Origin: Candidatus Heimdallarchaeota archaeon
GTDB lineage: Archaea > Asgardarchaeota > Heimdallarchaeia > Heimdallarchaeales > Heimdallarchaeaceae
Direction: 5' to 3'
NCBI GenBank assembly: GCA_021399395.1
Contig: JAAFKJ010000115.1
Span: 2,364-66,363 of the forward strand
Length of the DNA: 64,000 bases
How positions within the stretch are numbered: the first letter of the stretch is position 1; every line of letters starts with the position of its first letter. Position numbers and translations under genes: made by a program. Under the pieces are notes generated by a model. That model saw nothing but the letters and a program-made list of their open reading frames with translations. It made no database searches and was not told where the DNA came from. Below, piece by piece: positions 10,263 to 47,011 of this stretch.

Positions 10263-10892
10263 CTAATCATACATTTTATCAAGCAAATCATCGATTTTCT
10301 TCACTAGTTCACTTTTGAGTTTGTGTCTAGGTGGTTTATCCACATTCCTTAGATTTTTTATGTTGGATTCAAAGAGTATTTTTGATGCTAGAGTTTTTAC
10401 GATGTCTTCAACATCATACGTTTTTGGCTTAAACTCCTCTTCTGTCTTCTTTACTTCTACAACTTTCTGTTCAAACTCTCTGGTTTCCTTAATATCCAAA
10501 GGTTTTTGTTCTATTGTTCTTGAAGCTGGTAGAGTTTTTTCACCATATACATATGCTTGGGCAGGTAAATAATCTCTTGAAGAGATTGGCATCTCTTGAT
10601 ATGCTTCGGATTCCATTTTTCTTAGGATCTCAGGAAGAATTCTGTCCCTTTCCTCATGTTCAATGTTTACTACATTATATTTTGAACCTTTCATTGTTTT
10701 AAGATTAGTAGCTGCTCTACCTGCTGAATAGGATAAAACGTTTGAAATTCCATCTTTTCTGTAGATGAATATCTTTTTCTCAATTCTATCCATTATCAAA
10801 TAAGCTCCATTACCATCAAGAAAACTTTCTTTTTTTGCAGGTACTTCTTTATAACTACCATCTCTTCTTATTGAAAAAACTCGTAAACCCAT
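10263..10892 (-). CDS. Gelsolin-like domain protein with a charged C-terminal extension
   Basis: The N-terminal ~95 aa follow the gelsolin-repeat pattern (F-x-x-G-x-x-Y-[LI]; 'KIFIYRKDG...SAGRAATNL'; a terminal acidic strand 'VNIEHEERD'). The C-terminal ~100 aa are unassigned. Confidence 0.45.
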   Translation of the reverse strand: MGLRVFSIRRDGSYKEVPAKKESFLDGNGAYLIMDRIEKKIFIYRKDGISNVLSYSAGRAATNLKTMKGSKYNVVNIEHEERDRILPEILRKMESEAYQEMPISSRDYLPAQAYVYGEKTLPASRTIEQKPLDIKETREFEQKVVEVKKTEEEFKPKTYDVEDIVKTLASKILFESNIKNLRNVDKPPRHKLKSELVKKIDDLLDKMYD

Positions 10893-14642: not shown

Positions 14643-15110
14643 CTAAAGACTATACCTTCCTATCTGTTCAAAAGTAGCAAACTTGTCTACATATTCTTTG
14701 ACTTTATGGGAATATTCCTTTGGATCCCTTTTCATTAGATTTGCAGCTGTAGAATTTAAGGGATCATCAGGATTTGGGTTACTTAAAATAAATCGAATTG
14801 ATTCGATAACATCAACTAGATTGTTCGCTGGTGTCCAATCTGCTCCAAGCACCCCTACACATATACGGGTATCAAATACATTTGCATGGAATACTTTGGT
14901 CAGCATTTTTACCTTCGGGGGTTTGAATGGATATTCTCTTGGTATTTCTACCTCCAGCACGAAGACACCCCCCTCATATAATCCTGCTCCAAAGATGAAT
15001 CCTCGCCAGTAAAGAGTATTGCCATCAACAGGTTTGAAAGTTGGCAACTCTTTCTTTAATTCATTTGCTTCTATTGCAATTCGAGGCCAGAACTCTTCTT
15101 CAGATAACAT
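14643..15110 (-). CDS. Ubiquitin-conjugating enzyme (UBC/E2) fold protein
   Basis: 'YPFKPPKVKMLTKVFHANV...RICVGVLGADWTPANNL...SNPNPDDPLN' matches the UBC core, including the catalytic Cys and W-[ST]-P-A. Confidence 0.8.
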   Translation of the reverse strand: MLSEEEFWPRIAIEANELKKELPTFKPVDGNTLYWRGFIFGAGLYEGGVFVLEVEIPREYPFKPPKVKMLTKVFHANVFDTRICVGVLGADWTPANNLVDVIESIRFILSNPNPDDPLNSTAANLMKRDPKEYSHKVKEYVDKFATFEQIGRYSL

Positions 15111-15145
15111 TTTTATCCCTTATATTTTCCTCGGTGTTCTGTTTT

Positions 15146-15310
15146 CTAATATACTCCGGAACCCTTATTTTGCATTTCAAGTAGTATCATAAGTATTGCA
15201 GCAATCAATCCTTTTTGATCTCCTGCTATTCTCTTAAACTCTTCTCTTTCAAGCATCATTGCTACAGAACGCCATCTAACAAGTAATTCTACTATATCTC
15301 TTTCACTCAT
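15146..15310 (-). CDS. Possible 54-aa helical micro-protein upstream of the E2 gene
   Basis: An ATG-to-TAG ORF found by hand (MSERDIVELLVRWRSVAMMLEREEFKRIAGDQKGLIAAILMILLEMQNKGSGVY). It is on the same strand as the E2 and ends 35 nt before its ATG. It is below the ORF-track size cut-off. Confidence 0.3.
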   Translation of the reverse strand: MSERDIVELLVRWRSVAMMLEREEFKRIAGDQKGLIAAILMILLEMQNKGSGVY

Positions 15311-15461
15311 TAGCCTTCAGATATGCAAAGTTTGCTAGCTTTATTAAGATTATGTAACTCCTAATGGCATCGAATTTTTTTGACAATAGAATGGCAATTT
15401 CTCAATCCGCCTAATCCACAAATTTTTAAAATTTAAAGTTATTCTGTTATTGTGAATATTA

Positions 15462-16127
15462 ATGAGTAACCCAGAAGAAATGTTAGTACAATTAATCAAT
15501 TCTATTAACAAACTATCTACATTAGTTCAAAACGTTAATGATTCAATTGGCCAATTATCTACGCAGATTGCTCAATTAGAAACTAAGATGGCTGGTTTTT
15601 CCAATGTTGAAACTCAAGTATCTGAGGTTGGACTTAAACTTGGAGAAATTCCAGGAATAAAAAATATGATTTCTAATTTAGATGCAAAAATCGATGGTTT
15701 AGGTGCTACTGTCAGTACAGATGTAGCTCAAGCTCCCGTTGCTGAATCTAAACCAGCAAAGAAAGCGAAGAAAGAGGAATACGTATCACCTGGTATTACT
15801 GAAGAAGAACCTTCTGTTGGAGGCGCTTCTGAGGCTGATGCTGCATTTACAGCTGTTTCAGCAAAATTCAAGCACATAACACAGATGGTAAATCCGAATT
15901 CAAGTTGTGGAAATGTCTCACAAATGCTAGAAGATCTTAGAGATGAGGTGGAAACTCAAGTTGGAATGTCTCCAATGCTGTATGAATTAAATTCTTGGGT
16001 TCAACGGATTTCTAAAATGCCACAAGGTGATGTTCTTCTTCCTGAAGTTCATAGTGAACTTATAGAAAAGCTAGATGATTGGCTCAATAGAGTAACAAAA
16101 GCTATCCATTTGAAATATCAAGAGTGA
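15462..16127 (+). CDS. Coiled-coil protein with a Vps28-C-terminal-domain-like tail
   Basis: N-terminal heptad-rich helix, then an A/E/K/P-rich linker. The C-terminal ~90 aa ('...LNSWVQRISKMPQGDVLLPEVHSELIEKLDDWLNRVTKAI') align by eye with the human VPS28 C-terminal domain. Confidence 0.4.
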   Translation: MSNPEEMLVQLINSINKLSTLVQNVNDSIGQLSTQIAQLETKMAGFSNVETQVSEVGLKLGEIPGIKNMISNLDAKIDGLGATVSTDVAQAPVAESKPAKKAKKEEYVSPGITEEEPSVGGASEADAAFTAVSAKFKHITQMVNPNSSCGNVSQMLEDLRDEVETQVGMSPMLYELNSWVQRISKMPQGDVLLPEVHSELIEKLDDWLNRVTKAIHLKYQE

Positions 16128-16131
16128 TAAC

Positions 16132-16154
16132 TTTTGTTCTTTTTTTTCTTTTTT
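16132..16154 (+). terminator. T-rich tract, candidate terminator
   Basis: cttttgttcttttttttcttttt immediately after the stop codon at 16127. Confidence 0.35.
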
Positions 16155-16222
16155 AGTAATACCCGTATTCATACCGATGTAATACTAATTTTTTAACCTA
16201 ATAACAACATGTATAATATGTT

Positions 16223-16858
16223 ATGATGAACCTAAGTGATATTAAAGGCATTATTGAAATAAATGGTGAATCTTATGACCCTAAATCTGTTCTCAAAGCA
16301 TTACTTGATCAAGGATTAAAGATTCATCCTCTAAATGGTTCTTTGTTAATTGGTAGAACATTTATTGATGCTGCACCAAATTTGCAATATGGTTCAACAA
16401 CCTGTCCCATTTCAGATCATTGTAAGATATACGATAAATTATATCCACAAAAATTGGACGAAACAAATCCTTCAGAATATAGTTCAAACCAAAGTTCACC
16501 ATCTGTTAATGCCACTTCGGATTCTTCTCAAACATCATCAGACCGATTTTATACTGATCCTATTCGAATTGATATTGATGATATAGATATTACAAATCTG
16601 TTCTCTGACTCAACTATAGGTGCACAATCTGTTGATGATATTGAAGAAGATATTTTCTTGAATCCGGATTTTGGAAGAGAATTAGATTCTGATCCAACAG
16701 AAATGGTTGGTTTGTCTCCTGTAACCCGTTATGGAAGAACTTCACATATTCAAGAATCAACTGTTCCATCGGAATATAGAGGGAGATGTCCTTTCTGCAA
16801 TTCTATAGTTAACATAAAATGGAAATATTGTGGAAGTTGTGGAACTTCCATGAGTTAA
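16223..16858 (+). CDS. Protein with a small N-terminal domain, an S/D-rich disordered linker and a C-terminal zinc ribbon
   Basis: The C-terminus 'RCPFCNSIVNIKWKYCGSCGTSMS' has C-x2-C-x10-C-x2-C spacing. Confidence 0.5.
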   Translation: MMNLSDIKGIIEINGESYDPKSVLKALLDQGLKIHPLNGSLLIGRTFIDAAPNLQYGSTTCPISDHCKIYDKLYPQKLDETNPSEYSSNQSSPSVNATSDSSQTSSDRFYTDPIRIDIDDIDITNLFSDSTIGAQSVDDIEEDIFLNPDFGRELDSDPTEMVGLSPVTRYGRTSHIQESTVPSEYRGRCPFCNSIVNIKWKYCGSCGTSMS

Positions 16859-18332: not shown

Positions 18333-18842
18333 TTAAAAATCAATCCCTTTTCTAGCTACTATGCCTTCATTATAGGGGTGCTTAACCTCTTCAATATTGA
18401 TTATTTCATCTACTCTACTTCTAATCTTATCAGGTATTTTTCTACCTGTAATAATGATTTCCTCTTTTACTCTTCCCAAAATTGTTTGCAAATCTTTCCA
18501 TTCCACCAGATCATATGATAGGGCTATACCAAGTTCATCTAGTAATAGAATATCGATTTTGGCTTTGTTTAACTCATTTGAGATTTTATCTATCCCTTCT
18601 TTTACTATGTTTCTGAACTCTTCTAGTTGTTCATCTGAAACATAAAATTCGCTTTTACCAAAACAATACCATCTTAACTGATAATATTTATCAAAAAATT
18701 CACGCTCACCACTATTTTTACCCGTTTTTAGAAATTGTGTAACAATGACTTCCTTTCCATTTTGTATCTCTAAAAAAATATGTCCAATGGCAGTTGAGGT
18801 TTTACCTCGTCCATCTCCAGTAATAAGAGTGAGTTTTGCCAT
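18333..18842 (-). CDS. CobA/CobO/BtuR-type P-loop protein (ATP:corrinoid adenosyltransferase family)
   Basis: 'TGDGRGKTS' P-loop, 'QFLKTGKNSGE', 'LLLDELGIAL', 'ITGRKIP' and 'VKHPYNEGIVARKGIDF' follow the family consensus. Confidence 0.7.
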   Translation of the reverse strand: MAKLTLITGDGRGKTSTAIGHIFLEIQNGKEVIVTQFLKTGKNSGEREFFDKYYQLRWYCFGKSEFYVSDEQLEEFRNIVKEGIDKISNELNKAKIDILLLDELGIALSYDLVEWKDLQTILGRVKEEIIITGRKIPDKIRSRVDEIINIEEVKHPYNEGIVARKGIDF

Positions 18843-19422: not shown

Positions 19423-19980
19423 TTATCTTCCCATAGATTTTCGTCTATTATTTTGATCTTGTATTGCATTTTCAATTAGTGTTTTTACAAGATTTGCAAT
19501 ACCGTCACCTGTTAACGCAGATGTTTCTACATATCTGCAACCCAATCTTCTTGCAATTCTTTCTGCATCACTATGTTGAACTTCTCTTGCGACATCTGTT
19601 TTGTTCCCAACAATGGTTATATCTAAATCGATATTTTCTTGGCGTAATTCCCTAATCCAGTCTGCGCATTTTTTAAAAGAGTCCCTATTTGAAACATCAT
19701 AGATTATAGCAGCTGCATTAGTTCCAGGATAAAGAAGTTTTCTTACAACACCAAATCTTTTTTGACCTGCCATGTCATAGAAAAGTGCAACAGCTTTTCC
19801 TTTTTGTGTTTTGAAAGAGTAAGTATGAAATTCCGCCCCGACAGTTGGTTTGTATTTCTTTAGAAATACATTCTCGCTGATTCTTTTACAAATCGTTGTC
19901 TTGCCTGATCTACCCGGTCCACATATGGCAAGTTTATAGATATCATAGTCGCGGAACTTAACTTCTACATTTGAGCCCAT
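19423..19980 (-). CDS. Rab/Ras-like small GTPase
   Basis: G1 'GPGRSGKT', switch I 'PTVGAEF', G3 'YDMAGQKRF', G4 'GNKTDV' and G5 'ETSALTG'. The start is set at the internal ATG (MGSNVEV...). The 34-codon upstream extension looks non-coding. Confidence 0.85.
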   Translation of the reverse strand: MGSNVEVKFRDYDIYKLAICGPGRSGKTTICKRISENVFLKKYKPTVGAEFHTYSFKTQKGKAVALFYDMAGQKRFGVVRKLLYPGTNAAAIIYDVSNRDSFKKCADWIRELRQENIDLDITIVGNKTDVAREVQHSDAERIARRLGCRYVETSALTGDGIANLVKTLIENAIQDQNNRRKSMGR

Positions 19981-20125
19981 CTTTGGGAGCACCATGTAAA
20001 AACCCAGAAAAATAATTAAAAGGCGATGTAATACCTCACAGTTACGAGAACCCATATGTGTTGAATTTTGAAACTCATACACACTGGTTAATTCTTAAAT
20101 ATTACCAAGATGTAATTTGATTAGT

Positions 20126-28455: not shown

Positions 28456-28893
28456 ATGATCATGAAAGAAATTTTTCTTACTCATTATTATTATGGTGAT
28501 AGATTTACATCTTTTAAGACAGGATTAGGTACTATTATTAGAGGTCTTGGTCATTCATTGAATATTCGAATGATTCTCATAAATGACTCCTTTCATTGGT
28601 TAACAAATCAAGATCAGTTCAAAAATATAGATGCAGTTTTTCTTGATTTAAATCAACACAAAGAGATTCTACGTGTTCTTCAAGAAGAAATTTTGTCCTT
28701 AGAGAAGTCTCTTCTGTTTATTGCCAATTTTGATTTACTCATTGAGCATAACATTTTGAGTATAGAGGATTTTATAGATCTTATTAAGAGTAAACATAAA
28801 ACAACAGAGATTCTTTTAACTGGGGAAATGAAGTATCCTAAACTAGAAAATATAGCTGATTATGTAAGTGCCATTCAATCAACTAAAAACTAA
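28456..28893 (+). CDS. CobO-like fold protein lacking the P-loop
   Basis: Aligns by eye with the protein at 18333-18842 ('DLLIEHNILSIEDFIDLI...EILLTGEMKYPKLENIADYVSAIQ' vs 'ELGIALSYDLVEWKDLQTIL...EIIITGRKIPDKIRSRVDEIINIE'). G-x-G-x-GKT is replaced by 'YGDRFTSFKT'. Confidence 0.45.
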   Translation: MIMKEIFLTHYYYGDRFTSFKTGLGTIIRGLGHSLNIRMILINDSFHWLTNQDQFKNIDAVFLDLNQHKEILRVLQEEILSLEKSLLFIANFDLLIEHNILSIEDFIDLIKSKHKTTEILLTGEMKYPKLENIADYVSAIQSTKN

Positions 28894-43993: not shown

Positions 43994-44521
43994 TTGGTGA
44001 TTTACTTGTATGGTGCTGACCAAATTAATACAATTCTTCATGAGATTATAACAAGTGATGCTAATATTAATCATGTAATATTAGCTGATAAAACAGGATT
44101 AACACTAGCTTACTCCTCACGTTTTGCCTTTGATGAGTTTGAAACAGAAGCATTAGGCGCAATAGCTAGTGCAGTTTATTTAGCTAGTGAACAACAAGGA
44201 ACAAACGTTGGTCTGGCGGAACTAGACATTATCATTTCAGAATTTTCCGATGGTCTAATTTTAGTAGCAAGTTGTGGAAGCACTGTTTTGTGTTTGATTA
44301 CTGACACAGGCGTTGCATTGGGCATGGTTAGAAGAACCATGAAAATAGCAGCTGAAAAAATCAGAAACATATTAGATGTTGAAGCTAAACCTGTTATTGT
44401 TCCCGAAACTCAGCCTGCAGTTGCTGCAACTTCACAACCTGTAGTTGCGGAAGAGAAGAAAGTTCAGGATGAGTTTATCTCCGATTTAGAATTAGCATTA
44501 AGGGAATTAGAACAATTCTAG
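43994..44521 (+). CDS. Roadblock/LC7 (MglB-like) domain protein with a P/A/V/E-rich tail
   Basis: 'INHVILADKTGLTLAYSS...ALGAIASAVY...DGLILVASCGSTVLCLITD' follows the Roadblock alpha-beta-alpha pattern. TTG/GTG start. Confidence 0.7.
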   Translation: MVIYLYGADQINTILHEIITSDANINHVILADKTGLTLAYSSRFAFDEFETEALGAIASAVYLASEQQGTNVGLAELDIIISEFSDGLILVASCGSTVLCLITDTGVALGMVRRTMKIAAEKIRNILDVEAKPVIVPETQPAVAATSQPVVAEEKKVQDEFISDLELALRELEQF

Positions 44522-44546
44522 TTCTATTTATTGTGTAGGGTGTTTG

Positions 44547-45380
44547 ATGGATATGGATGCTCCTGATGAAGGACTAGAACGAATTGGAAAAACGCAAGCG
44601 TCTAAGGATTCAAGAGGAGAGCTAATTTTAACAGGAATCCGTTCTTTAGATCAGAAACTTGGTATGGAAATGGCAAAAAGAAGGGGAATACCCCAGGGAT
44701 CCTTTATCCTTGTAAGTTATCCATCAGGAACAGTTATTCCAACTTTGTTCATTCAGAGAATTCTTCTCAATTGGGCTAAACAATCTCCTGATAATGTGAT
44801 TTTTTATGTTCATAGCAGTCGACCCTATGATCATGTTCAAAATTCCTTCCAAGCATATAATTGGGATGTAAGTCCCTATGAGGGAAAGAATTGGTATTTT
44901 GAAAATATGTTCGATTTATCCAGCTCTGCAATGACTTCATCTTTAAAACTAGGTAAGATTGAAGTGAAGAGAAAAACCTATGTAAACAGAATTCTAGATC
45001 GAATGATTCACGTAAAAGAATCTCAGAAAAAACAATGTTTCAGTGTTTTTGATGATTTACTATGGATGAAAGAAGATAGGTTAGATGAAGATTCAAGTGC
45101 TCTCATTACTTTTATTAAAAGTGCAATTATGAAATTTACAAAAATTGGCGGTGTGCATTTCCTCCTCCTCCCTCAAGGTATTTTGGATCCTGTTGCGGAA
45201 AGAATCATCATGAATGCAGCACAAGGTATATTCCATTTCACAAGGAATACTGTTGGGAGTAGAATCAAGGATACTTTTGCCATAACTAAATTGATGGGGA
45301 TAGCCTTTGTTAGTGAGAATCTAGACATTACTCCTTCAGAAACAGAAGGTTTCAAAATAGAATCAACAGCAAAGATATAG
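44547..45380 (+). CDS. KaiC/RecA-superfamily protein with a degenerate Walker A
   Basis: 'TGIRSLDQKLG...GIPQGSFILVSYPSGTVIPT' is colinear with KaiC-like 'TGI.GLD..LGGGIP.GS..LV.G.PGTGKT' but lacks GK[ST]. The C-terminal 'FAITKLMG...EGFKIE' is also family-like. Confidence 0.65.
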   Translation: MDMDAPDEGLERIGKTQASKDSRGELILTGIRSLDQKLGMEMAKRRGIPQGSFILVSYPSGTVIPTLFIQRILLNWAKQSPDNVIFYVHSSRPYDHVQNSFQAYNWDVSPYEGKNWYFENMFDLSSSAMTSSLKLGKIEVKRKTYVNRILDRMIHVKESQKKQCFSVFDDLLWMKEDRLDEDSSALITFIKSAIMKFTKIGGVHFLLLPQGILDPVAERIIMNAAQGIFHFTRNTVGSRIKDTFAITKLMGIAFVSENLDITPSETEGFKIESTAKI

Positions 45381-46175
45381 ATGATGGTAATGGAAGGTTA
45401 TGAAGAAAATAAAAACGAAGAAGAACCCGAACTAATGGACATTGCATCTGAAATTTCGAAACTTTCAGAAGAAGTTAGTGCGTTAAAGGATAATATCAAA
45501 ACTCCAAAAAAACGCAGCAAAAGTGATAAATCATCTAAAGTTAAACAATCCCCTCAAATTGAGTTATCACCAGCTATTGGATATGTTAATGAATTGTTAG
45601 AAAACTCTTCTGAAGTCATTATCTCAGAGATGAAATCAGAATTCTTCAGATTATTCAATTTTCTTTCAAGTATGTTCTCTGTAACACCCTATCAATCCAT
45701 GGGGAGAACTATTCCTAGAAAGGAGGATTCCATGGAAGACTCAGCTGTTAAGCAAGTTGTATCAACTTCCGAATTCCAAAAGGAAAAAGAAATGATGCAA
45801 TTACTACTTGAAGAACGTGAATCATTAGTATACGAATTGTCTGATCAAATAGTTGCAATTGAAGCTGAAAAGAAAGTGTTAGAAGATAAAATGCAAGAGA
45901 TTGAGAAAGATAAAGCTAAATGGAATACACAGAAGAATATCCTGGAAAGAATAGTAACCACTGATCCAAGATTTAACATAATTACACTTCTAAGAAGAAT
46001 GGGTGTAATTGCACCAATACAGCTCTCTTTTGTTCTTGGGGTTTCTTTGTCACAAACTAGACGCTATATCTCCGAACTAGAACAAATAAAAATATTACAG
46101 GTAAAAGATGATGGTACAGTCTCTTTACATCCTGATTTTGATGAAGATTCTATGAATATTAAAATTCAAGAATGA
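45381..46175 (+). CDS. Coiled-coil protein with a C-terminal winged-helix domain
   Basis: The ATG directly abuts the previous stop. It has a central heptad region. The C-terminus 'ITLLRRMGVIAPIQLSFVLGVSLSQTRRYISELEQIKILQVKDDG' is wHTH-like. Confidence 0.5.
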   Translation: MMVMEGYEENKNEEEPELMDIASEISKLSEEVSALKDNIKTPKKRSKSDKSSKVKQSPQIELSPAIGYVNELLENSSEVIISEMKSEFFRLFNFLSSMFSVTPYQSMGRTIPRKEDSMEDSAVKQVVSTSEFQKEKEMMQLLLEERESLVYELSDQIVAIEAEKKVLEDKMQEIEKDKAKWNTQKNILERIVTTDPRFNIITLLRRMGVIAPIQLSFVLGVSLSQTRRYISELEQIKILQVKDDGTVSLHPDFDEDSMNIKIQE

Positions 46176-46215
46176 TTTTTTTGAAAATAAAGTAAAAATA
46201 GAAGAGAAGTTTCGT

Positions 46216-46785
46216 CTATTGTTGAGCATAGAGTTTTTCATAGAAAAGAACGATATTCTTCAACAAAGTTTTGAATGCTTCATCAACGTTTTCTCCAGTT
46301 TTAGCTGAAGTTTCTATGTATGGAACAGTAAACCCTGACCATTGAGACAATGACCTAGCATATTCTTCTGATTGTTCTCTCATGATTGGATCTTTTGCTG
46401 TTGCTCGTAAGTCTGATTTATTCCCTATTAGGACTATTGGTACAACTCTATTGCTATTGTTTTTTAGAAGTTCTGCAATCCATGAAGGAATGTTCTCAAA
46501 ACTTGAACGTCTAGATATGTCAAAAACCAACAAACATCCAGATGTACCTCTGTAGTAAACCTCTCTAACAGCTGAGAATCTTTGCTGTCCTGCTAAATCC
46601 CAGATTTGAGCAACAAAATCCTGATCGTCAATACGTAGGCGCTTAACTGCAAAATCTGCACCAATTGTCATTGAATATCCGTCTTTGAAACCCTCACCTA
46701 AATAGGTTTTGCGGAGGCTAGTTTTTCCAACTGCTCCGTCTCCGAGTAGAGTTATTTTGAAGATTTTACGTTGTCCGGCACCCAT
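46216..46785 (-). CDS. Rab-like small GTPase
   Basis: G1 'GDGAVGKTS', 'TIGADF', G3 'WDLAGQQRF', G4 'GNKSDL' and G5 'ETSAKTG'. There is no C-terminal Cys prenylation motif. ATG at 46785. Confidence 0.85.
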   Translation of the reverse strand: MGAGQRKIFKITLLGDGAVGKTSLRKTYLGEGFKDGYSMTIGADFAVKRLRIDDQDFVAQIWDLAGQQRFSAVREVYYRGTSGCLLVFDISRRSSFENIPSWIAELLKNNSNRVVPIVLIGNKSDLRATAKDPIMREQSEEYARSLSQWSGFTVPYIETSAKTGENVDEAFKTLLKNIVLFYEKLYAQQ

Positions 46786-47011
46786 TATAAGTTCCCCATT
46801 ATACAATTTATTTATTCTCTCGGATACTATTTAAATTGTTTGTTATTTCTCGTTAAACTATGTTTTCACTTTTTCAAGCAATATTCTGTTTTCATCAGCT
46901 TTTGTTATCGATTATTCTTCAATTTTGACATCATCTACAAAAAACATTATAAAAAATCTTACATCTTCATATTTCACAAAATATAAAATTAGGATAACAT
47001 TCTTATTTCTA

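Follow-up and report, generated by a model that had tools for sequence, protein, structure and literature searches.

A Vps28-C-Like Coiled-Coil Protein and an Adjacent Micro-Protein in a Gene Neighborhood of Heimdallarchaeaceae

We analyzed a stretch of 64,000 nucleotides from Candidatus Heimdallarchaeota archaeon (assembly GCA_021399395.1, contig JAAFKJ010000115.1, positions 2,364 to 66,363; hereafter the window), in which four small neighboring genes encode a ubiquitin-conjugating enzyme (E2) of 155 amino acids, a micro-protein, a protein of 221 amino acids whose C-terminal bundle resembles the C-terminal domain of Vps28 (Vps28-C), and a protein of 211 amino acids that ends in a zinc ribbon. 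[quoted passage not shown] We found that the locus is a Heimdallarchaeaceae-specific neighborhood and not an ESCRT-I complex. The genes for the micro-protein, the 221-residue protein and the zinc-ribbon protein form a lineage-specific trio, of which the first two are the tightest pair. Sequence searches indicate that the 221-residue protein belongs to an uncharacterized, Asgard-wide family, and its bundle appears to be more similar to Vps28-C than to any other known domain in both profile and model comparisons.

Four of the five pillars of the ESCRT-I analogy failed: the E2 is not a ubiquitin E2 variant (UEV), the micro-protein has no detectable homology to the headpiece hairpins, the Vps28 core is missing, and the zinc ribbon is not of the NZF type. 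The fifth, the Vps28-C-like bundle, survives. The E2 component of the locus has already been published; what is new here is the architecture of a coiled coil plus a Vps28-C-like bundle that comes with a dedicated micro-protein.

The 221-residue protein and its C-terminal bundle

The protein is built of three parts, whose limits are given in table 1. In the AlphaFold2 (AF2) model, the N-terminal half is one long helix (helices at residues 4–61 and 64–81) with no hairpin domain, and the predicted local distance difference test score (pLDDT) is 84–96 over residues 1–50. Multiple alignment revealed that residues 1–40 are highly conserved and that residues ~58–93 are deleted in some relatives. The bundle has a pLDDT of 81 in the block that begins at residue 121, 85–94 (mostly >90) for the blocks covering 131–220, and 56 at residue 221; it is characterized by the motif LRDEVE..VGMSPMLYELNSW..KMP....L....KLDDWL.RV. 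In the linker between the two, an EYVSPG motif (15768–15785) and a near-invariant P110 are kept and the rest is variable; EYVSPG looks like a docking motif. Direct matches of the whole protein in Pfam, NCBIfam and PDB (NPV_P10, BLOC1_2, reovirus sigma-1 and designed coiled coils) were dismissed as compositional coiled-coil noise, and a Foldseek comparison of the model with viral structures gave nothing meaningful.

Three kinds of search placed Vps28-C first. When the model was compared with 350,542 PDB chains using Foldseek, ranks 1–3 were all Vps28-C chains (2j9w_A, 2j9w_B, and 2g3k_A; E = 0.025–0.06, probability 1.00, target-normalized template-modeling score 0.63–0.68), ahead of designed and other four-helix bundles. 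A hidden Markov model (HMM) of the bundle superfamily, searched against 177,635 PDB sequences, had Xenopus Vps28-C (2j9w_A) as its top match (E = 0.0032). Using hhalign, the superfamily profile was aligned to a reference of three eukaryotic Vps28-C sequences from PDB entries with 91.8% probability over 57 columns (E = 7.6e-7); reversed profiles reached 0.2–0.5% and 100 column shuffles no more than 3.4%. The Pfam VPS28 family (PF03997; model length 188, gathering cut-off 24.5 bits) matched 3 of 31 family members below threshold. The best values for family members were E = 0.056, E = 0.0012, and, highest of all, 20.3 bits (E = 5e-4) over model positions 103–180 for the C-terminal domain of the relative P0097.

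The suggestion of the preliminary description that the C-terminus looks like Vps28-C thus holds for the fold, a four-helix bundle, and for its best match by Foldseek, HMM and hhalign; it does not extend to Pfam VPS28, where the similarity of the family is only sub-threshold and the window protein has no match. Its reading as a full counterpart of Vps28 was not supported either, since the N-terminal core is absent: hhalign of the family alignment against human VPS28 aligned nothing in residues 1–122. A search of a 5.8-billion-protein collection with the superfamily bundle alignment retrieved only seven proteins, and no Vps28-annotated bridge sequence was among them.

Only 19 matches to the bundle HMM were detected among 1.84 billion representative proteins. 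Members with the same order of coiled coil, linker, and bundle occur in Hod-, Hel-, Odin-, Ran-, and Heimdall-archaea. The remote ones, from the first four of these groups, are all annotated as hypothetical and extend the motif to RDEI....HPxLYEL..W..K.P....L...K..DW..R. Based on sequence, the family would be best filed as a divergent, sub-threshold variant among the Asgard Vps28-C-containing proteins. Hodarchaeia have been reported to lack ESCRT (Makarova et al. 2024, mBio, PMC10936438). One homolog lies on a contig named Hodarchaeota, and this apparent presence argues that the role of the family may not be strictly tied to ESCRT.

The genomic contexts of the distant homologs are diverse. In Helarchaeota, the gene for P0095 (337 amino acids; locus L035, 6007–7560) begins only 10 bp behind a gene for a small GTPase of the Arf/Ras/Roc type, and the two look like an operon. 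P0092, the homolog on the Hodarchaeota-named contig, is encoded directly upstream of L14 in a ribosomal-protein operon, and P0094, which has no taxon attached, between S17 and L14 in such an operon (P0094/P0092 loci: L037, 1535–2191; L038, 1578–2234; L042, 1–723). The Ranarchaeia homolog adjoins S25e, and copies in Odin- and Ranarchaeia lie among unrelated genes.

The neighboring genes and their order

The scan covered one genome per GTDB species, and 21 window proteins were mapped onto the loci found. The 221-residue family was detected in 28 species, all represented by Heimdallarchaeaceae-type metagenome-assembled genomes (MAGs), including two closed Ca. Heimdallarchaeum genomes. Three arrangements were observed, given here with the strand of each gene (ZnR, zinc-ribbon gene; 221, gene for the 221-residue protein). 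Type A (queE- E2- micro- / 221+ ZnR+ radA-) is present in the window, in 25 of the 28 scanned species, and in locus L039. Type B (radA+ ZnR- E2- / micro+ 221+ queE+), in which the E2 and 221-residue genes have swapped sides around the micro-protein gene, occurs in Ca. Heimdallarchaeum aukensis and endolithica. Type C (RsmB- / micro+ 221+ ZnR+ radA-) is represented by locus L001 of GCA_054001415.

The four genes are contiguous in types A and B. In type C, neither the E2 nor the que genes are in the locus, and the E2 is dispensable for the cluster there; the other three genes are co-directional, closely spaced, and operon-like. The micro-protein gene adjoins the 221-residue gene in all three arrangements and is its upstream co-directional neighbor in types B and C. 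The check named in the preliminary description, conservation of the neighborhood in other Asgard genomes, thus came out positive within one family, where the cluster is kept in 28 species, but not in the contexts examined outside it. Around the homologs examined, over distances of up to 10 kb, no vps22, vps23, vps25, or vps4 gene was annotated or visible, and the 64 kb of the window contain none. An Arf-like GTPase gene (19423–20082) located ~3 kb downstream of the window copy stays syntenic.

The micro-protein has ~50–57 amino acids in relatives, and its sequence predicts two helices (MSERDIVELLVRW...AGDQKGLIAAILMILLEMQ); the pattern shared among relatives is MSERDIVELLVRW...AGDQKGLIAA..LLE. 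Each related locus that is sequenced as far as this position contains an ortholog. Pairwise ratios of nonsynonymous to synonymous substitution rates (dN/dS) are 0.02–0.18, with dS of 0.6–2.3 and synonymous sites near saturation. Low dN/dS and conservation in related loci indicate that this open reading frame (ORF) is more than a product of chance; it is a real gene under purifying selection.

No similarity of the micro-protein to a known family was detected in Pfam (E ≤ 1), NCBIfam, or PDB, and the steadiness-box, Vps23_core, Mod_r, and Vps37 profiles did not match it. When ten orthologs were searched against Pfam at E ≤ 10, the sole match was EF-hand_14 (0.1). An HMM search against PDB gave nothing relevant, and hhalign against human VPS28 gave 0.2%. 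The possibility that the micro-protein is a steadiness box or the Vps28 N-terminal hairpin thus found no support in profile, PDB-HMM, and hhalign comparisons. The preliminary description was right about a helical micro-ORF, in so far as the gene is real and two helices are predicted, but its suggested kinship with a hairpin of the ESCRT-I core found no match to any headpiece family.

The E2 is the best conserved of the four proteins (75–99% identity across the 28 species). Pfam UQ_con (PF00179) covers residues 17–140 with 117.5 bits (E = 4.5e-34; cut-off 27), confirming the UBC fold that had been proposed; 280 E2 chains in PDB match at E ≤ 1e-3, and the protein aligns end to end with structures of UbcH5/UBE2D (UbcH5b) at ~1e-27. 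The catalytic Cys is kept ('trICVGVLgadW' opposite 'gsICLDILrsqW' of UbcH5b) and is invariant in all orthologs. The HPN triad reads H-A-N in the window protein and most orthologs, so that His and Asn are kept and Pro is replaced by Ala. The Ca. Heimdallarchaeum E2 (locus L033, 8961–9431) keeps H-P-N, and the Pro-to-Ala change is lineage-specific. The 155 residues contain no UEV-type coiled-coil stalk or steadiness box, and Pfam detected no domain beyond the UBC core.

The ortholog of AB_125, HeimAB125_07740, has been modeled and classed as a bona fide E2, one of two in that genome, in which the UEVs without Cys are HeimAB125_11700 and HeimAB125_14070 (Hatano et al. 2022, PMC9192718). Since the catalytic Cys is kept, the window protein appears to be an enzyme, not a UEV-type ubiquitin reader as the ESCRT-I analogy would have it, and its sequence indicates an ordinary, catalytically competent E2. 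We found no mention in the papers searched of the AB_125 locus tags next to HeimAB125_07740.

The zinc-ribbon protein consists of a conserved N-terminal domain, an acidic disordered linker, and the ribbon. The N-terminal domain carries the motif IKGIIEINGESYDPK..LNGSLLIGRTF..C-x5-CK with two invariant Cys. It had no match in Pfam or PDB, and its AF2 model, built from a 23-sequence alignment, was unusable (mean pLDDT 39). A ThiS/MoaD-like (ubiquitin-like) beta-grasp was suspected for this domain, but Pfam and PDB profiles gave no support and the idea was not used. Within the variable linker, two motifs are conserved, R.Y.D.I.ID.DDIDI..LF (16538–16600) and EPTEMMGVSPLTKYG (16697–16735), and both resemble docking motifs. 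Within EPTEMMGVSPLTKYG, the G-[LVM]-S-P core echoes the VGMSPML of the 221-residue bundle, which may be a coincidence.

The ribbon follows the pattern C-x2-C-x7-W-x2-C-x2-C-G, in which the four Cys and the Trp are invariant. DZR (PF12773), Zn_ribbon_3 (PF13248), and Zn_Ribbon_1 (PF13240) match 10–13 of the 13 members. DZR matches all 13 (best E = 3.7e-6), the window copy scoring 20.4 bits against a cut-off of 27.3, and several homologs are already annotated with one of these three families; Zn_ribbon_15 and UPF0547 also match. A terminal zinc ribbon, as originally described, is thus present. Its proposed role as a ubiquitin-reading zinc finger of the ESCRT type was not substantiated: the module is a generic DZR ribbon, no zf-RanBP/NZF match was found at E ≤ 10 among the 13 members, and the ribbon does not fit the NZF signature W-x-C-x2-C-x3-N-x6-C-x2-C with its T-F dipeptide.

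Table 1. Features of the four-gene locus, in window coordinates.
Feature	Position	Strand	Basis
Canonical class-I E2, 155 amino acids	14643–15110	-	ORF list; Pfam UQ_con
Micro-protein gene, 54 codons	15146–15310	-	ORF; 35 bp upstream of E2, same strand
Divergent spacer, 151 bp	15311–15461	.	Between micro-protein and 221-residue genes
221-residue protein gene, Vps28-C-like C-terminal bundle	15462–16127	+	ORF; AF2, Foldseek, profiles
Residues 1–81, long N-terminal helix/coiled coil	15462–15704	+	AF2 and alignment
Residues 82–119, disordered Pro/Lys/Glu-rich linker of variable length	15705–15818	+	pLDDT <50
Residues 120–221, four-helix Vps28-C-like bundle	15819–16127	+	AF2, Foldseek, profiles
211-residue protein gene, C-terminal zinc ribbon	16223–16858	+	ORF; Pfam DZR-type matches
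Residues 1–75, conserved N-terminal domain	16223–16447	+	Invariant columns in two alignments
Residues 187–209, four-Cys zinc ribbon	16781–16849	+	Pfam and alignment

All four ORFs are present exactly where the preliminary description had placed them, on the same strands. The source genome is a MAG of AB_125-like Heimdallarchaeaceae, and the 221-residue product is identical to GenBank GOP50_08280. The housekeeping flanks had also been named correctly: on one side lies a radical-SAM QueE-type gene, the first of a preQ0 run (GCHY-1, DUF366, PTPS, and QueC), and on the other radA. The divergent arrangement is likewise real, but the promoter region of ~350 bp said to be common to the four genes corresponds to the whole stretch separating the E2 gene from the 221-residue gene and includes the micro-protein gene; the actual spacer is the one listed in table 1. 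Alignment of 11 orthologous spacers revealed two separately kept A/T-rich blocks, each ~30 nt upstream of its own start codon, with TTTATTAAGATTATGT beside the micro-protein gene, CCTAATCCAAAAATTTTTTTAAAT and TGTGA beside the 221-residue gene, and a variable middle. The blocks look like two back-to-back promoters, and the variable center of these 11 spacers gives no sign of a shared operator.

The reported absence of E1, ubiquitin, Vps4, and ESCRT-III from the 64 kb was supported by a motif scan and by Pfam. Neither the Walker A motif of AAA proteins, G.PG.GK[ST] ('GPPGTGKT' type), nor the ThiF motif G.GG.G or an ORF with a terminal GG was found across the window, and Snf7, Vps4, ThiF, and ubiquitin had no Pfam match among 20 otherwise unassigned ORFs. 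The other ORFs are housekeeping genes, as judged from their translations or from Pfam annotation of syntenic loci. tRNA and Rfam scans of positions 1–64000 detected neither a tRNA gene nor an Rfam family that reached the gathering score.

Several other features of the window were noted. A Roadblock/LC7 protein (43994–44521), a KaiC-like ATPase (44544–45380), and a coiled-coil protein of 264 amino acids (45381–46175) are encoded next to a Ras/Rab-like GTPase on the opposite strand (46216–46806), and this cluster (43994–46806) resembles an MglA/MglB-type GTPase module. An ORF at the edge (10–558) encodes a C2H2-type zinc finger, a domain typical of eukaryotes (Pfam zf-C2H2, E = 7e-5, below cut-off). 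Two ORFs are similar to CobA/CobO/BtuR adenosyltransferases (18333–18842 and 28456–28893); the second is short (145 amino acids), and its match is limited to the C-terminal half of the adenosyltransferase profile. A hypothetical protein of 209 amino acids (10263–10892) is kept beside the que genes in all related loci; a gelsolin-like N-terminus considered for it found no support in Pfam or in a PDB sequence search.

Alternative explanations

Our best explanation, to which we would give an even chance, is a family-specific neighborhood in which an adaptor, its micro-protein, and a zinc-ribbon protein are encoded beside an ordinary E2. The 221-residue protein may be an elongated scaffold or adaptor, whose coiled coil would oligomerize and/or bind the micro-protein as a small subunit and whose Vps28-C-like bundle would serve to dock a partner. 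Yeast Vps28-C binds the zinc finger of Vps36, and by this analogy the zinc-ribbon neighbor is the most obvious candidate for the partner. The adjacency of the E2 may reflect co-regulation or plain synteny, and a link of the locus to ubiquitin is unproven.

Several results weigh against this explanation. The four-helix bundle is a fold of wide occurrence, Foldseek gave E-values of only 0.025–0.06, no VPS28 match in Pfam reaches threshold, and the window protein has none at E ≤ 1. The alignments also conflict in register: hhalign pairs helices 2–4 of the family with helices 1–3 of Vps28-C, whereas the Pfam match of P0097 runs collinear along almost the entire domain, and the span of ~100 columns in the Foldseek matches points the same way. 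Such a conflict would be expected of a bundle made of two similar hairpins. Because the register is ambiguous, strict homology of the bundle to Vps28-C, as far as sequence can tell, falls short of proven. Moreover, the synteny is confined to a single family, and in the few distant contexts examined none of the micro-protein, E2, and zinc-ribbon genes lies beside homologs outside Heimdallarchaeaceae. Adjacency alone is weak evidence even within this family, because its members share a collinear gene order all the way from RsmB to PolB, housekeeping genes included, with queE, radA, and cobA as equally conserved neighbors.

This collinearity also favors an explanation by coincidence, which we consider possible if rather unlikely: the genes would be unrelated neighbors in a slowly rearranging segment, the E2 would serve the general ubiquitin pathway, and the bundle would resemble Vps28-C by convergence. 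It is consistent with the position of the E2 at the head of a co-directional preQ0/archaeosine run that has no obvious link to it, with the center of the divergent spacer not being conserved, and with the sub-threshold score and ambiguous register of the Vps28-C similarity. However, the micro-protein gene stays beside the 221-residue gene through an inversion and a change of context, and the trio in L001 is operon-like. Convergence also has to contend with an hhalign probability of 92% against at most 3.4% in 102 controls, which is hard to ascribe to composition alone, and with the first rank of Vps28-C in three kinds of search.

We regard as quite improbable the proposal of the preliminary description that the locus is either a minimal ESCRT-I-like unit for ubiquitin recognition or cargo sorting or else a satellite accompanying the main ESCRT locus. 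In such a unit, the E2 fold would read or attach ubiquitin, the micro-protein would be a steadiness-box-like hairpin, the 221-residue protein would be the Vps28 equivalent that docks ESCRT-II, and the ribbon would bind ubiquitin or Vps28-C. Apart from the similarity of the bundle, this proposal can draw on the contiguity of the four genes in types A and B despite internal inversions. In addition, Asgard free-standing steadiness-box proteins are reported to interact with Vps28, and Asgard ESCRT-I genes to be 'not tightly clustered' (Hatano et al. 2022). A steadiness box or Vps28-C is also present in many Asgard multidomain proteins, which have been proposed to reach ESCRT-II without core ESCRT-I (Makarova et al. 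2024). The components themselves speak against it: the E2 has its catalytic Cys, the micro-protein lacks similarity to steadiness-box, Vps23_core, Mod_r, and Vps28 N-terminal sequences, the 221-residue protein has no Vps28 N-terminal core, and the ribbon is not NZF. The same is true of the wider context, as AB_125 has its canonical ESCRT-I elsewhere, the E2 is missing from the L001 cluster, no ESCRT or ubiquitin gene was found in the 64 kb, and the family occurs on a contig named after a class reported to lack ESCRT.

A more speculative reading, which we hold to be decidedly doubtful, is that the trio forms a previously unrecognized adaptor complex of Asgard archaea that, in Heimdallarchaeaceae, is coupled to ubiquitylation. 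The micro-protein would cap or bundle with the coiled coil as a headpiece analog, the bundle would dock the ribbon as Vps28-C docks Vps36, and the E2 would mark cargo or be recruited to it. Vps28-C might then be an older general docking module later borrowed by ESCRT, because the family is also found in Asgard classes from which ESCRT is said to be absent, where it lies in ribosomal-protein operons.

Very unlikely, and the least probable of all, is a role of the 221-residue family in a pathway involving neither ubiquitin nor ESCRT (e.g., as a coiled-coil factor connected with small GTPases or with the ribosome and translation), with the Heimdallarchaeaceae neighbors as lineage-specific accessories; it would fit the GTPase gene preceding the Helarchaeota homolog, the syntenic Arf-like GTPase downstream in the window, and the copies beside L14, S17, and S25e, but the contexts differ by lineage, none recurs across classes among the only four distant ones sampled, and none of the domains suggests that a GTPase or the ribosome is bound.

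The locus is a modest lead and not a miniature ESCRT-I. How the bridge from ESCRT-I to ESCRT-II arose, and how ubiquitin came to be linked with membrane sorting, are questions of current interest for eukaryogenesis. If the bundle is a true Vps28-C domain, a widespread and simple architecture of coiled coil plus Vps28-C would join the catalog of Asgard ESCRT-related building blocks. Its useful features are a dedicated micro-protein partner, E2 and zinc-ribbon neighbors in one family, occurrence in lineages reported to lack ESCRT, and four small products for which binding assays would be cheap. With its occurrence in those lineages and such small products, the family would then allow a test of whether Vps28-C is specific to ESCRT or serves more generally for docking. 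Should the similarity be convergent, the locus would be ordinary conserved synteny around an already published E2.

Comparison with known systems

Eukaryotic ESCRT-I is composed of Vps23/TSG101, with its UEV domain, Vps28, Vps37, and Mvb12. The locus likewise encodes a UBC fold, small helical proteins, a Vps28-C-like bundle, and a zinc module. In contrast to both eukaryotic and Asgard ESCRT-I, however, its UBC protein is an E2 with Cys that lacks a stalk or steadiness box, and no homology to the headpiece hairpins is detectable. The canonical complex of the AB_125-type lineage is encoded elsewhere. In AB_125 it is a fusion of UEV, Vps23, and Vps28, HeimAB125_14070 (Hatano et al. 2022); the neighborhood tables for the ESCRT cluster of this genome contain Vps22, a separate gene for a 'Vps28 protein, C-terminal region', and an E2/Vps23-core fusion (Makarova et al. 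2024). The 221-residue gene is not near Vps22, Vps23, Vps25, or Vps4.

The E2 itself has its counterpart in HeimAB125_07740, an ortholog in the syntenic AB_125 locus (L015) that is 92% identical and has the same 155-residue UBC core and catalytic Cys, with no notable difference.

In yeast, Vps28-C binds the zinc finger of Vps36 (Makarova et al. 2024; PDB 2J9U/2J9W titles), and this interface with NZF-1 links ESCRT-I to ESCRT-II (PDB 2J9U). A Vps28-C-like bundle is likewise encoded beside a protein with a small terminal zinc module in our locus. The ribbon here is C-x2-C...C-x2-C without the NZF signature, and in Ca. Heimdallarchaeum the E2 and micro-protein genes separate those for the bundle and the ribbon.

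The closest similarity is to Vps28-C itself (PDB 2J9W, 2G3K, and 2J9U). Both domains are C-terminal four-helix bundles of ~100 residues that follow a helical region and a linker, and features common to the two include L-R-x-E-[IV], [SQH]-P-x-L-x-E-L, and W-[LV]-Q..[LI]S.M...D.L. Compared with Vps28, the 221-residue family lacks the N-terminal steadiness-box/core domain and stays below the Pfam VPS28 cut-off. As in the Asgard multidomain proteins with Vps28-C (Makarova et al. 2024), the domain is joined to another module, the adaptin appendage, longin, and TPR modules of those proteins being replaced here by a plain coiled coil.

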